Assembly: GCF_055900595.2 (NCBI RefSeq)
Contig: NZ_CM148325.1
Length of the DNA: 64,000 bases
Direction: 5' to 3' (one strand)
Shown here: piece after piece, positions 3,001 to 9,000 of the stretch
Numbering within the stretch: the stretch's first letter is position 1
Layout: the number at the start of each line of letters is the position of its first letter
Made by a program: the position numbers

Positions 3001-6000
3001 TAGGGATTATTCGCGACGATCCACACGCCCTGCGCGCCGCTTTTATTGAAGCCGATAGCCAGGCGGATGTGGTGATCAGTTCCGGCGGTGTTTCAGTGGG
3101 TGAAGCGGATTACACCAAAACCATTCTTGAAGAGCTGGGGGAGATCGCCTTCTGGAAGCTGGCGATTAAACCAGGTAAACCGTTCGCGTTCGGTAAACTC
3201 AGCAATAGCTGGTTCTGCGGCCTGCCGGGCAACCCGGTTTCAGCAACGCTGACCTTCTATCAACTGGTACAGCCTTTGCTGGCAAAACTAAGCGGCAATA
3301 CCGCCAGCGGCCTGCCCGCGCGCCAGCGTGTGCGCACGGCATCGCCTCTGAAGAAATCGCCAGGACGCCTTGATTTCCAGCGCGGCGTGCTGCAACGCAA
3401 CGCCGATGGCGAACTGGAAGTGACGACCACCGGACATCAGGGTTCACATATATTTAGCTCCTTTAGCCTCGGCAACTGCTTTATCGTACTGGAGCGCGAG
3501 CGCGGCAATGTGGAAGTGGGCGAATGGGTGGAAGTAGAACCGTTTAACGCGTTGTTCGGAGGCCTGTAATGGCGGAACTCAGCGATCAGGAGATGCTGCG
3601 CTACAACCGGCAAATCATTCTGCGCGGTTTTGATTTTGACGGTCAGGAGGCGCTAAAAGATTCTCGTGTGCTGATCGTCGGCCTCGGTGGACTCGGCTGT
3701 GCAGCTTCGCAGTATCTGGCAAGCGCCGGTGTCGGCAACCTGACACTGCTCGACTTCGACACGGTTTCGCTCTCGAATCTGCAACGCCAGACTCTGCACA
3801 GTGATGCCACGGTCGGGCAACCGAAGGTGGAATCCGCCCGTGACGCCCTGACGCGGATCAACCCACATATTGCGATTACACCCGTCAATGCACTGCTAGA
3901 TGACGCAGAACTTGCAGCATTGATTGCTGAACACGATCTGGTGCTCGACTGTACGGATAACGTTGCGGTACGCAATCAACTGAACGCAGGCTGTTTTGCC
4001 GCAAAGGTGCCGCTGGTTTCCGGGGCGGCAATTCGTATGGAAGGGCAAATCACGGTCTTCACTTATCAGGACGGCGAGCCTTGCTACCGCTGCCTTAGCC
4101 GTTTGTTTGGCGAAAATGCGTTAACCTGCGTAGAAGCAGGCGTGATGGCACCGTTGATCGGGGTGATTGGTTCGTTGCAGGCAATGGAGGCGATCAAACT
4201 GCTGGCAGGTTATGGCAAACCTGCCAGCGGCAAAATCATCATGTACGATGCGATGACTTGCCAGTTTCGCGAAATGAAACTGATGCGTAATCCGGGGTGC
4301 GAGGTGTGCGGGCAGTAATTGCCAGCCCCAGGCCTGATAAGTCGCGGCAAGCGTCGCATCAGGCATTTGCTCCAGACGCCAGATGCGGCGTGAACGCCTT
4401 ATCTGGCCTACGGTTCGGGCGCAGATTTCCAGGCGCGGCAAGCGTTGGTGCACTCCACCATGTCATCAGCAATTGATGAGGATGCAGAACGTCCGGTTAA
4501 ATCGACGTTCTGCCAAAAGCCCCCTGCCAGTCCTGCTCAAACTTCGCCACGGCGGCATCAACTGCCGGATAGCTAATCATCTGCTGCGCCACATCCAGTG
4601 GCAGCGTGATTGATTCACATCCTGCCAGTAAGCAATCCAGCGCCTGACGCGGGGTTTTAAAACTCGCGGCTAACACTTTCGCCTGCGGCGCATGCATTTT
4701 CAATAACTGGTGTAAATCGGTCACAGTTTGAATACCGCTACCGCCCTGAGCATCAATTCGGTTGACGTAAGGTGCAACGTACTCCGCACCTGCCAGCGCC
4801 GACAGCAGCCCTTGTGCCGCGCCATACACTGCCGTACCCAGCGTCGGAATACCTTCTGCTTTTAACATTTTAATAGCAGCCAGCCCCTCGGCAGTCACCG
4901 GAACTTTCACCACGATATCTGCAATAATAGAACGCAGTTGACGTGCATCATTCACCATCCCTTCGGCAGTGGTAGCCATTACCTGGGCAAACAGACGCCC
5001 CTGACCGCCCATCGCTTCGTGAAGCTCCGGAAGTACCACCTCCAGCGGTTTTTTACCCGCGGCGATAATACTTGGGTTAGTGGTCACACCCGCCAGCGGA
5101 AAAATACGTGACAGTGTCTTCACCGCAACAACGTCTGAAGTATCCAGATACAGTTCCATAACCATCCTCAAAATGTACTTTTTGTCTGAATGTAGACTAT
5201 CACGGGAAAACTCTCTGAACAGTTGACGCACATCAATCTAACTTTCATTCGAAAGTATTTTAATGTTTGAACGAAACAGAGAGGCAACTATGATTTTCAA
5301 TATTCAGCGCTACTCGACCCATGACGGCCCCGGTATCCGCACGGTCGTTTTTCTTAAAGGCTGTTCACTGGGCTGCCGCTGGTGTCAGAACCCGGAAAGC
5401 CGCGCCCGCACGCAGGATCTGCTGTATGACGCACGTCTGTGCCTGGAAGGCTGCGAGCTGTGCGCTAAGGCCGCGCCGGAAGCGATTGAGCGCGCGCTGA
5501 ATGGTTTGCTTATTCATCGGGAAAAGTTAACCCCGGAGCATCTGACGGCGTTAACCGACTGCTGCCCGACACAGGCGTTAACCGTGTGTGGTGAAGTGAA
5601 AAGCGTTGAGGAGATCATGGCGACCGTTCTGCGCGACAAACCGTTTTACGATCGCAGCGGCGGCGGCTTAACGCTTTCCGGTGGTGAGCCGTTTATGCAG
5701 CCGGAAATGGCGATGGGGCTACTGCAAACCAGCCACGAAGCCGGTATTCATACTGCGGTAGAAACCTGTCTGCATGTGCCGTGGAAATACATCGCCCCTT
5801 CTCTGCCGTATATCGATCTGTTTCTTGCCGATTTAAAACACGTTGCCGACGTGCCGTTTAAACAGTGGACCGACGGTAACGCCGCCAGAGTGCTGGATAA
5901 CCTGAAAAAACTCGCAGCGGCGGGGAAAAAAATCATCATCCGCGTGCCGTTGATACAGGGCTTTAATGCCGATGAAACCTCTGTGAAAGCCATTACCGAT

Positions 6001-9000
6001 TTTGCCGCCGACGAGCTGCACGTCGGCGAAATTCATTTCCTGCCCTACCACACGTTGGGCATCAACAAATATCACTTACTTAATCTGCCCTATGACGCCC
6101 CGGAAAAACCGCTTGATGCGCCAGAACTGCTCGACTTTGCCCTGCAGTATGCCTGCCAGAAAGGGTTAACCGCGACCTTACGAGGATAACAACCATGACC
6201 ACACTGAAACTGGACACGCTCAGCGACCGCATTAAAGCGCACAAAAATGCGCTGGTGAATATTGTGAAACCGCCGGTCTGTACCGAGCGCGCGCAGCACT
6301 ATACCGAGATGTATCAACAACATCTCGATAAGCCGATCCCGGTACGTCGCGCGCTGGCGCTGGCCCATCACCTGGCGAATCGCACCATCTGGATCAAACA
6401 CGATGAGTTGATCATCGGCAACCAGGCCAGCGAAGTTCGCGCCGCGCCGATCTTCCCGGAATATACCGTCTCCTGGATCGAAAAAGAGATTGATGATCTG
6501 GCGGATCGTCCGGGTGCAGGTTTTGCGGTGAGCGAAGAGAACAAACGCGTTCTGCATGAAGTGTGCCCTTGGTGGCGCGGTCAGACGGTACAGGATCGCT
6601 GCTATGGCATGTTTACCGATGAGCAAAAAGGCCTGCTGGCGACCGGTATCATTAAAGCGGAAGGTAATATGACCTCCGGCGATGCGCACCTGGCGGTCAA
6701 TTTCCCACTGTTGCTGGAAAAAGGGCTTGATGGTCTGCGCGAGAAAGTGGCGGAGCGCCGCATGCGTATTAACCTGACCGTGCTGGAAGATCTGCACGGC
6801 GAGCAGTTCCTGAAAGCGATTGATATCGTGTTGGTGGCGGTCAGTGAACATATTGAACGTTTCGCTGCCCTGGCGCGTGAAATGGCCGCTACCGAACCCC
6901 GCGAAAGCCGTCGCGATGAACTGCTGGCGATGGCCGAAAACTGCGACCTTATCGCCCACCAGCCGCCGCAGACTTTCTGGCAGGCGCTGCAACTGTGCTA
7001 CTTCATCCAGTTGATTTTGCAGATCGAATCCAACGGACACTCGGTATCGTTTGGTCGTATGGACCAGTATCTCTACCCGTACTATCGCCGTGATGTTGAA
7101 CTGAACCAGACACTGGATCGTGAACACGCCATCGAGATGCTGCATAGCTGCTGGTTAAAATTGCTGGAAGTGAACAAGATCCGCTCCGGCTCACACTCAA
7201 AAGCCTCTGCGGGAAGTCCGCTGTATCAGAACGTCACCATTGGCGGGCAAAATCTGGTTGATGGTCAACCAATGGACGCGGTGAATCCACTCTCTTACGC
7301 GATCCTCGAATCCTGCGGTCGCCTGCGTTCGACGCAGCCTAACCTCAGCGTGCGCTACCACGCGGGAATGAGTAACGATTTCCTCGATGCCTGTGTGCAG
7401 GTGATCCGCTGCGGCTTCGGGATGCCGGCGTTCAACAACGACGAAATTGTCATCCCGGAATTTATTAAACTCGGTATTGAACCGCAGGACGCTTACGACT
7501 ACGCAGCGATTGGTTGTATCGAAACCGCCGTCGGTGGCAAATGGGGCTATCGCTGCACCGGGATGAGCTTTATCAACTTCGCCCGCGTGATGCTGGCGGC
7601 GCTGGAAGGCGGTCGTGATGCCACCAGCGGCAAAGTGTTCCTGCCACAAGAAAAAGCGTTGTCAGCGGGTAACTTCAACAACTTCGATGAAGTGATGGAC
7701 GCGTGGGACACGCAAATCCGTTACTACACCCGTAAATCAATCGAAATCGAATATGTCGTCGACACCATGCTGGAAGAGAACGTGCACGATATTCTCTGCT
7801 CGGCGCTGGTGGATGACTGCATTGAGCGAGCGAAAAGTATCAAGCAAGGCGGCGCGAAATATGACTGGGTATCGGGCCTGCAGGTCGGCATTGCTAACCT
7901 CGGCAACAGCCTGGCGGCAGTGAAGAAACTGGTGTTTGAACAGGGCGCGATTGGTCAGCAACAACTGGCTGCCGCACTGGCGGATGACTTCGACGGCCTG
8001 ACGCACGAGCAGCTGCGTCAGCGGCTGATTAACGGCGCGCCGAAGTACGGCAACGACGATGATACTGTCGATACGCTGCTGGCTCGCGCTTATCAGACCT
8101 ATATCGACGAACTGAAGCAGTACCATAATCCGCGCTACGGTCGTGGTCCGATTGGCGGCAACTATTACGCAGGTACGTCGTCTATCTCCGCTAACGTACC
8201 GTTTGGCGCGCAGACTATGGCAACGCCGGACGGGCGTAAAGCCCACACCCCGCTGGCAGAAGGCGCAAGCCCGGCTTCCGGTACTGATCATCTTGGCCCT
8301 ACTGCGGTCATTGGCTCGGTGGGTAAACTGCCTACGGCAGCGATTCTCGGCGGCGTGTTGCTCAACCAGAAACTGAATCCGGCAACGCTGGAGAACGAAT
8401 CTGACAAGCAGAAACTGATGATCCTGCTACGTACCTTCTTTGAGGTGCATAAAGGCTGGCATATTCAGTACAACATCGTTTCCCGCGAAACGCTGCTGGA
8501 AGCGAAAAAACATCCGGATCAGTACCGCGATCTGGTGGTGCGCGTAGCGGGTTATTCCGCCTTCTTCACTGCGCTCTCTCCAGACGCACAGGACGATATC
8601 ATCGCCCGTACTGAACATATGCTGTAATCTCCTTCGCCCGGCGGCGTCGTCGCCGGGCCAAATCATTCACATCATCAATTCCGCTCTCACTTTCATTCGA
8701 AATATAATTTGTGCTCTGCGTCACATTGTTATTACACTGTTACGGTTTCATTTTCGAGCCAGGAGCACACCTATGAGCGTAAAAGTTATCGTCACAGACA
8801 TGGACGGTACTTTTCTTAACGACGCCAAAACGTACAACCAACCACGTTTTATGGCGCAGTATCAGGAACTTAAAAAGCGCGGCATTGAGTTCGTTGTCGC
8901 CAGCGGTAATCAGTATTACCAGCTTATTTCGTTCTTTCCTGAGCTAAAGGATGAGATCTCTTTTGTCGCGGAAAACGGCGCACTGGTTTACGAACATGGC

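Follow-up and report, generated by a model that had tools for sequence, protein, structure and literature searches.

The ybiYW–fsaA region of an Escherichia coli chromosome as the probable anhydroglycolysis gene cluster under FNR and YciT control

We examined a 64,000-nucleotide stretch of contig NZ_CM148325.1 from NCBI RefSeq assembly GCF_055900595.2, referred to here as the window. Positions 5290–8627 of the window correspond exactly to two genes separated by 5 nt: ybiY, encoding a radical S-adenosylmethionine (SAM) activase, and ybiW, encoding a glycyl radical enzyme. Together with the divergently transcribed fructose-6-phosphate aldolase gene fsaA, this pair very probably represents the E. 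coli "anhydroglycolysis" gene cluster, activated by FNR and repressed by YciT. The system is already known, the function of YbiW having been published in 2024, the repressor YciT in 2021 and 2025, and FNR binding in 2013; the window presents it in a slightly divergent E. coli strain. The modest additions made here, which connect separate papers, are the base-pair positions of three predicted YciT operators, their conservation, evidence for an ancestral linkage with yciT, and FNR as the likely identity of an activator detected at the ybiY promoter by Reg-Seq.

The ybiYW pair and its published function

An open reading frame (ORF) listing and megablast comparison with complete E. coli genomes placed the window in the moeAB-fsaA-ybiYWVU-ybiT region, and gene coordinates were checked against the RefSeq annotation of an E. 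coli chromosome that is 99.9% identical over positions 4000–11000. On the plus strand, ybiY (5290–6189) encodes a 299-residue protein that is 98.0% identical to K-12 YbiY, with six substitutions, and scores 364 bits against the glycyl-radical activase model TIGR02494 (cut-off 174). The adjacent ybiW (6195–8627, plus strand) encodes 810 residues and was assigned with TIGR01774; its product is 99.1% identical to K-12 YbiW, and the seven substitutions all fall at positions that vary among 79 orthologs. A 308-residue ORF beginning at ATG 5263 was rejected as an alternative for ybiY because this ATG is not present in other species. Across a 130-bp intergenic region lies fsaA (4497–5159, minus strand; RefSeq annotation), whose product shares 97.7% amino acid identity with K-12 FsaA and exceeds the cut-offs of the fructose-6-phosphate aldolase models NF009296 (453 bits against 306) and TIGR00875 (284 against 246). 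High identity to the K-12 protein and retained synteny with ybiY and fsaA identify YbiW as its ortholog. The K-12 locus has the same chromosomal position, catalytic residues, flanking genes, FNR box and operators, apart from the adjacent ybiU, for which the window has a rare allele of another type. A preliminary description of this stretch agrees with the annotation and domain calls in its gene identities, operon layout, divergent fsaA and downstream phosphatase.

According to Ma et al. 2024 (J Am Chem Soc 146:26187; pmid 39283600), as summarized in a 2025 review (PMC12441222), 1,5-anhydroglucitol and 1,5-anhydromannitol are phosphorylated by a phosphotransferase system (PTS), after which YbiW converts 1,5-anhydroglucitol-6-phosphate, and PflD converts 1,5-anhydromannitol-6-phosphate, to 1-deoxyfructose-6-phosphate. 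In the same summary, YbiW enables anaerobic growth of E. coli on 1,5-anhydroglucitol, and the anhydro-sugar route also supports anaerobic growth of many gut bacteria (Ma et al. 2024 in PMC12441222). Full-length matches to YbiW are present in the PDB as entries 8id7 and 8yjn ("Probable dehydratase YbiW"), and entry 8yjo is PflD. The earlier statement that the substrate of YbiW is poorly defined is therefore outdated, cleavage of 1,5-anhydroglucitol-6-phosphate having been published in 2024 by this account. The accompanying suggestion of a sugar-phosphate-linked anaerobic pathway was right: a check of literature and databases found a published YbiW activity that is tied to the neighbouring aldolase and is in that respect not unrelated to the surrounding genes.

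FNR box, shared operators and YciT repression

A 16-bp palindrome, ACTTTC-N4-GAAAGT, lies 5' of ybiY, ybiV and ybiU. The ybiY copy, operator O1 (ACTTTCATTCGAAAGT, 5241–5256), has perfect palindrome arms and sits between the FNR box and the ybiY -10 element. The copy 5' of ybiV (ACTTTCATTCGAAATA, 8689–8704) was recognized by motif scan and conservation, and that 5' of ybiU (ACTTTCGAACGAAAGT, 9712–9727) by motif scan, 3' of a conserved promoter block at ~9660–9697. Four strand-matches, all at these three positions, were obtained in the 64 kb, where 0.17 would be expected; four matches were reached in 0 of 100 shuffles, and no copy was found elsewhere in the window at up to two mismatches. A candidate operator common to ybiY and ybiV had been proposed in the preliminary description; it proved real, and the third copy, at ybiU, had not been listed there.

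Conservation was assessed in a comparative set of 80 YbiW-ortholog loci from Enterobacterales genomes (1.34 Mb), to which the cross-species counts below refer. Of 193 palindrome matches, 172 fell at fixed offsets 5' of the three genes, namely 41–46 nt before the ybiY ATG (77 loci of 80), 72–77 nt before the ybiV ATG (40 loci) and 20–41 nt before the ybiU ATG (55 loci), and the palindrome is conserved at fixed offsets in ~75 of the 80 species. At ybiU, the operator core is preserved across alleles and is kept in the window even though the upstream region is only ~62% identical to K-12. As a negative control, the K-12 gldA-fsaB-ptsA/frw-pflDC region was searched, and the palindrome was not found there.

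The likeliest function of the palindrome is that of an operator for the DeoR-family repressor YciT. Chromatin immunoprecipitation with exonuclease treatment (ChIP-exo) gave YciT peaks at ybiY/fsaA and ybiV/ybiU, and the same study describes a palindromic motif for the protein (Gao et al. 2021, PMC8464067). RNA sequencing of ΔyciT cells gave log2 changes of +7.7 for ybiY, +7.0 for ybiU, +3.5 for ybiW, +2.2 for ybiV and +1.8 for fsaA, and the published description assigned YciT to osmolarity control (PMC8464067). The palindromes thus stand in the promoters of genes derepressed in ΔyciT cells and are conserved across species, in keeping with operators of a YciT regulon. Further evidence comes from Reg-Seq, in which YciT was enriched on ybiYp DNA by DNA-affinity mass spectrometry, its site overlapped the footprint of RNA polymerase on this promoter and lay ~100 bp away from the position called by ChIP-exo, the promoter was active only anaerobically, and an unidentified activator acted just upstream of the YciT site (bioRxiv 10.1101/2025.05.13.653802). 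DeoR, GlpR, AgaR and FruR-type repressors combine an HTH_DeoR domain with a DeoR C-terminal sensor domain, an architecture also present in YciT orthologs; like these repressors, YciT would repress a catabolic sugar-phosphate cluster via TTTC/GAAA-type palindromes that overlap promoters. Unlike typical members of the family, E. coli yciT is unlinked to its targets, lying ~480 kb away.

Upstream of O1, at a distance of 6 nt, the FNR box TTGACGCACATCAA (5223–5236) matches TTGAT-N4-ATCAA at 9 of 10 positions. A single match of this quality is not significant alone, as 2.9 are expected per window; however, 73 of the 80 upstream regions retain TTGA(C/T)-N4-(A/G)TCAA at the same distance from the operator and between them show 33 different spacers. 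An FNR peak from chromatin immunoprecipitation sequencing was reported at ybiY/fsaA with the motif TTGATGTGCGTCAA (Myers et al. 2013 supplement, PMC3688515). This motif is the reverse complement of the box, and its coordinate matches; the box at 5223–5236 is the published FNR site. Because a conserved FNR box lies upstream of the operator and an FNR peak has been published, the Reg-Seq activator of ybiYp is most likely FNR. Neither the YciT paper (PMC8464067) nor the Reg-Seq preprint mentions the 2024 function of YbiW, FNR or the mechanism described by the other.

The putative -10 element of ybiY is TTTAAT at 5259–5264 on the plus strand, which recurs as TTTAAT or TTAAAT directly past the operator in orthologs. 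From this element and the FNR spacing, we infer transcription to start at ~5271. The FNR box would then be centred at -41.5, the YciT operator would extend from -30 to -15, and a weaker operator-like element would cover ~-6 to +7. Such a layout would fit a class II FNR promoter, the -41.5 spacing resting on the conserved TTTAAT. The weaker element (GTTTGAACGAAAC, or CTTCATACGAAA in other species; 5265–5277) belongs to a partly conserved block 3' of the -10 element and may have a regulatory role around the start site. A promoter proposed by the consensus scan, with its -10 overlapping the ybiY start codon, was rejected as implausible, and the conserved TTTAAT was preferred.

In the proposed mechanism, transcription of ybiYW would require FNR at 5223–5236 as the anaerobic signal and would be blocked by YciT on the palindrome at 5241–5256, with ybiV (8689–8704) and ybiU (9712–9727) gated by the same type of operator. 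Because ybiY, ybiV and ybiU have this operator in common, the four transcription units would form one regulon. YciT may be induced by a sugar phosphate, for instance 1,5-anhydroglucitol-6-phosphate or 1-deoxyfructose-6-phosphate.

Substrate, regulator and enzyme class

Several points weigh against assigning the region to anhydroglycolysis under FNR and YciT. The published pathway leaves YbiV and YbiU without a role, and the review cited above questions whether 1,5-anhydroglucitol arrives in the anaerobic colon in substantial amounts (PMC12441222). The ChIP-exo peak coordinates of YciT lie ~100–160 bp off the palindromes, an offset that the Reg-Seq authors also noted. Finally, no convincing sigma-70 promoter for ybiY emerged from a consensus scan, which is why the start site was placed from the FNR spacing only.

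The first two of these points suggest that 1,5-anhydroglucitol-6-phosphate might be a secondary substrate, and that the cluster mainly handles or detoxifies another anhydro- or deoxy-sugar phosphate, with YbiV and YbiU at its core. Most Enterobacteriaceae retain the order fsaA / ybiY-ybiW-ybiV-ybiU, and ybiV and ybiU, under the same operator as ybiY, are syntenic in 55–60 of the 80 species. However, growth of E. coli on 1,5-anhydroglucitol has been reported, as summarized in PMC12441222, and Serratia, Buttiauxella and others carry fsaA-ybiYW unaccompanied by ybiV/ybiU, which argues that the trio is self-sufficient. This alternative substrate is accordingly regarded as improbable, and 1,5-anhydroglucitol-6-phosphate remains the preferred one. 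Two variations in gene content were also seen: ybiU is absent beside ybiV in E. whittamii and E. albertii, and in six Klebsiella/Raoultella loci (L028, L032, L034, L035, L037 and L041) fsaA is absent from its usual place, so that moeB adjoins ybiY.

Less probable still is a reading in which some regulator apart from YciT recognizes the palindrome, or in which the palindrome is a repeat without regulatory function. In addition to the displaced ChIP-exo coordinates, such a reading would draw on the intergenic region upstream of K-12 yciT, where the palindrome was not found at up to two mismatches; autoregulation of YciT through this operator was rejected on the same ground. Against it, no genes are derepressed more strongly or more significantly in ΔyciT cells than the five beside the three palindromes. 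A palindromic motif has been reported for YciT, and affinity recovery of the protein on ybiYp DNA maps it to the palindrome, ~100 bp away from where ChIP-exo placed it. Converted from NC_000913.2, with a 777-bp offset between reference versions that was confirmed via the FNR motif, the ChIP-exo peaks map to 5124–5151 (5' end of fsaA) and 9535–9569 (3' end of ybiV); Gao et al. 2021 (PMC8464067) list no peak at the ybiV operator.

A further argument for YciT is the physical linkage of its gene with the cluster in other genera: a yciT ortholog encoding a protein 58–78% identical to YciT lies directly 3' of ybiW or within ~2.5 kb of the cluster in 12 loci from distant Enterobacterales. Direct adjacency (L072, L076, L073, L077, L078, L080, L058 and L060, at ~10450–11230 of these loci) was found in Franconibacter, Buttiauxella, Serratia, Affinibrenneria and two further Enterobacteriaceae, and the looser arrangement in Prodigiosinella, Rouxiella, Brenneria and Mangrovibacter (L066, L068, L075 and L081). 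In L072 and L076, whose flanks were examined, fsaA-ybiYW-yciT lies between rnb/pdeR and pyrF, which is the yciT locus of E. coli. This position implies that yciT and the genes of the ybiYW enzymes were ancestrally contiguous, and that the E. coli lineage has moved fsaA-ybiYW next to ybiVU, parting the regulator from its targets. The Rouxiella aceris locus (L066, positions 3000–17300) contains a yciT-like gene, ybiU, fsaA, ybiY and ybiW, followed by genes for a ROK kinase, an Fe-alcohol dehydrogenase, a second YciT, a major facilitator superfamily (MFS) transporter and a PTS EIICB component, with operator-like sites at 15332 and 17262, 5' of the MFS and PTS genes respectively. Its kinase, dehydrogenase and transporter content lends independent genomic support to the pathway.

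The catalytic residues place YbiW among the eliminases. It scores 1403 bits (cut-off 678) against TIGR01774, a model of PFL2/glycerol-dehydratase-type glycyl radical enzymes (PFL, pyruvate formate-lyase), and contains the Pfam domains PF02901 (694 bits) and PF01228 (113 bits). Its glycine-radical motif RVAGY includes G786, and its Cys loop (IGCIE/GCIE at 440–443) includes C441 and E443; all three residues are invariant in the 79 orthologs. A single Cys followed two residues on by Glu (GCxE) is the pattern of the eliminase/dehydratase class. In YbiY, the CX3CX2C motif of the SAM cluster is CSLGCRWC (residues 25–32), and a Cys-rich insert carries CLEGCELC at 51–58 plus further Cys residues. The best-scoring characterised structural relatives after YbiW itself, at ~500–550 bits, are B12-independent glycerol dehydratase and propanediol dehydratase (PDB 1r8w and 5i2a), which have the same Gly/Cys/Glu catalytic set.

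By analogy with these dehydratases, YbiY would install a glycyl radical on G786 of YbiW, and a thiyl radical at C441, with E443 as base, would take a hydrogen beside the ring oxygen of 1,5-anhydroglucitol-6-phosphate. Elimination of the C1-O5 bond would then open the ring to yield 1-deoxyfructose-6-phosphate. A ketyl radical followed by beta C-O scission is the likely common chemistry; the dehydratases expel a hydroxyl group in a dehydration, whereas in YbiW the leaving group would be the ring ether oxygen of a phosphorylated anhydro-sugar, so that the ring opens. The product would be cleaved by FsaA to glyceraldehyde-3-phosphate and hydroxyacetone, a reaction that the 2024 study reportedly assigned to FsaA or FsaB. 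Hydroxyacetone is said to be reduced by GldA to 1,2-propanediol, and the same work reportedly includes substrate-bound crystal structures.

A second E. coli locus provides a close parallel. PflD and PflC, with FsaB, GldA and the Frw PTS, are a glycyl radical enzyme and activase paralogous to YbiW and YbiY; the pair yields the same product and stands beside a paralogous aldolase. Unlike ybiYW, this locus acts on the other epimer, 1,5-anhydromannitol-6-phosphate, and has its own PTS and gldA; it was not among the ΔyciT-derepressed genes seen and carries no YciT-type operator.

That YbiW is instead a pyruvate or 2-ketoacid formate-lyase lying near fsaA by coincidence, as the K-12 record labels ("putative pyruvate formate lyase" for ybiW, "PFL activating enzyme" for ybiY) and the PFL-like Pfam domain might suggest, is scarcely credible, since YbiW falls far below the true PFL models (TIGR01255, 161 bits against a cut-off of 994; NF007437, 579 against 1109), has an eliminase-type GCIE loop and no Cys-Cys dyad anywhere in the protein, finds its closest characterised structures beyond YbiW in glycerol and diol dehydratases, and has a different published activity as summarized in PMC12441222.

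ybiV, ybiU and adjacent elements

Beginning 145 bp past ybiW, ybiV (8773–9588, plus strand; annotation and family models) encodes a Cof-type HAD sugar phosphatase and is followed by ybiU (9740–10999, plus strand), a DUF1479/Gig2-like gene whose product scores 504 bits against Pfam PF07350. Just past the ybiW stop codon, a GC-rich hairpin without a T-run (8633–8661, plus strand; an inverted repeat with 14-nt arms, 86% complementary) is probably the 3' end or a stabiliser of the ybiYW transcript, and a terminator-like hairpin lies 3' of ybiV at 9599–9618. The ybiV upstream region also contains a CRP-like palindrome (TGTGCTCTGCGTCACA, 8710–8725) with one mismatch to the CRP consensus, located 5 nt past the ybiV operator; its arms are conserved across species, and its centre is variable. 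The spacing of this palindrome to a conserved -10-like element, TGTTATTA(C/A)A, corresponds to neither a class I nor a class II position, and CRP as a class II activator of ybiV was rejected on account of this misfit. Elsewhere in the region, a REP/BIME-like palindromic element (repetitive extragenic palindrome/bacterial interspersed mosaic element) of ~100 bp with strong hairpins lies between moeB and fsaA at ~4350–4449; it is absent from K-12, and related copies occur at 29524–29553 and 31168–31192.

The ybiU gene is the divergent part of the locus. The window allele shares 81% amino acid identity and ~62–77% nucleotide identity with K-12, compared with ~92–98% for the flanking genes. Among 5426 complete E. 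coli genomes, 16 match it at 99% or more, 228 at 80–90% and 4086 at 60–80%, and ~1100 have no match, whereas the ybiYW region is present in 5425. A band of 90–95% identity might be read as indicating a divergent species; this was rejected, the band being largely due to the diverged ybiU allele.

YbiU is represented in the PDB by 2csg and 2dbi, and its HxD...H residues are conserved out to fungal Gig2; the protein probably adopts an Fe(II)/2-oxoglutarate oxygenase fold. Its promoter block is strongly conserved and contains no FNR box, with the operator located between the block and the start codon. This arrangement fits the very high expression of ybiU in aerobic ΔyciT cells, where the base mean reached ~6500 (RNA sequencing, PMC8464067).

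These features allow a speculative proposal, which we consider rather unlikely, that the YciT regulon is split by oxygen, YbiU being an O2-dependent Fe(II)/2-oxoglutarate oxygenase that acts on the same anhydro-sugar phosphate pool as an aerobic counterpart of YbiW. YbiU might, for example, hydroxylate C1 of 1,5-anhydroglucitol-6-phosphate to give glucose-6-phosphate, and YbiV could serve as a phosphatase safety valve. The idea arises because ybiYW combines an FNR box with an oxygen-sensitive enzyme, while ybiU lacks an FNR box, is derepressed aerobically and encodes an HxD...H iron triad. A functional tie of YbiU to the cluster finds support in Rouxiella and Mangrovibacter, where ybiU is linked to a yciT-like gene, and in the YciT-type operator conserved 5' of ybiU in 55 of the 80 loci.

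With regard to the YbiW enzyme itself, its re-finding in a genome scan adds nothing new; the analysis points instead to YbiU, YbiV and the inducer of YciT as the remaining puzzles. For decades, ybiYW-fsaA was itself a textbook "y-gene" puzzle, comprising a second and third PFL-like enzyme and an aldolase without a physiological substrate. In the solution of 2024, radical chemistry channels 1,5-anhydroglucitol, a polyol of dietary and host origin, into glycolysis, and the cluster is thereby relevant to gut microbial metabolism and to human disorders of 1,5-anhydroglucitol-6-phosphate toxicity.

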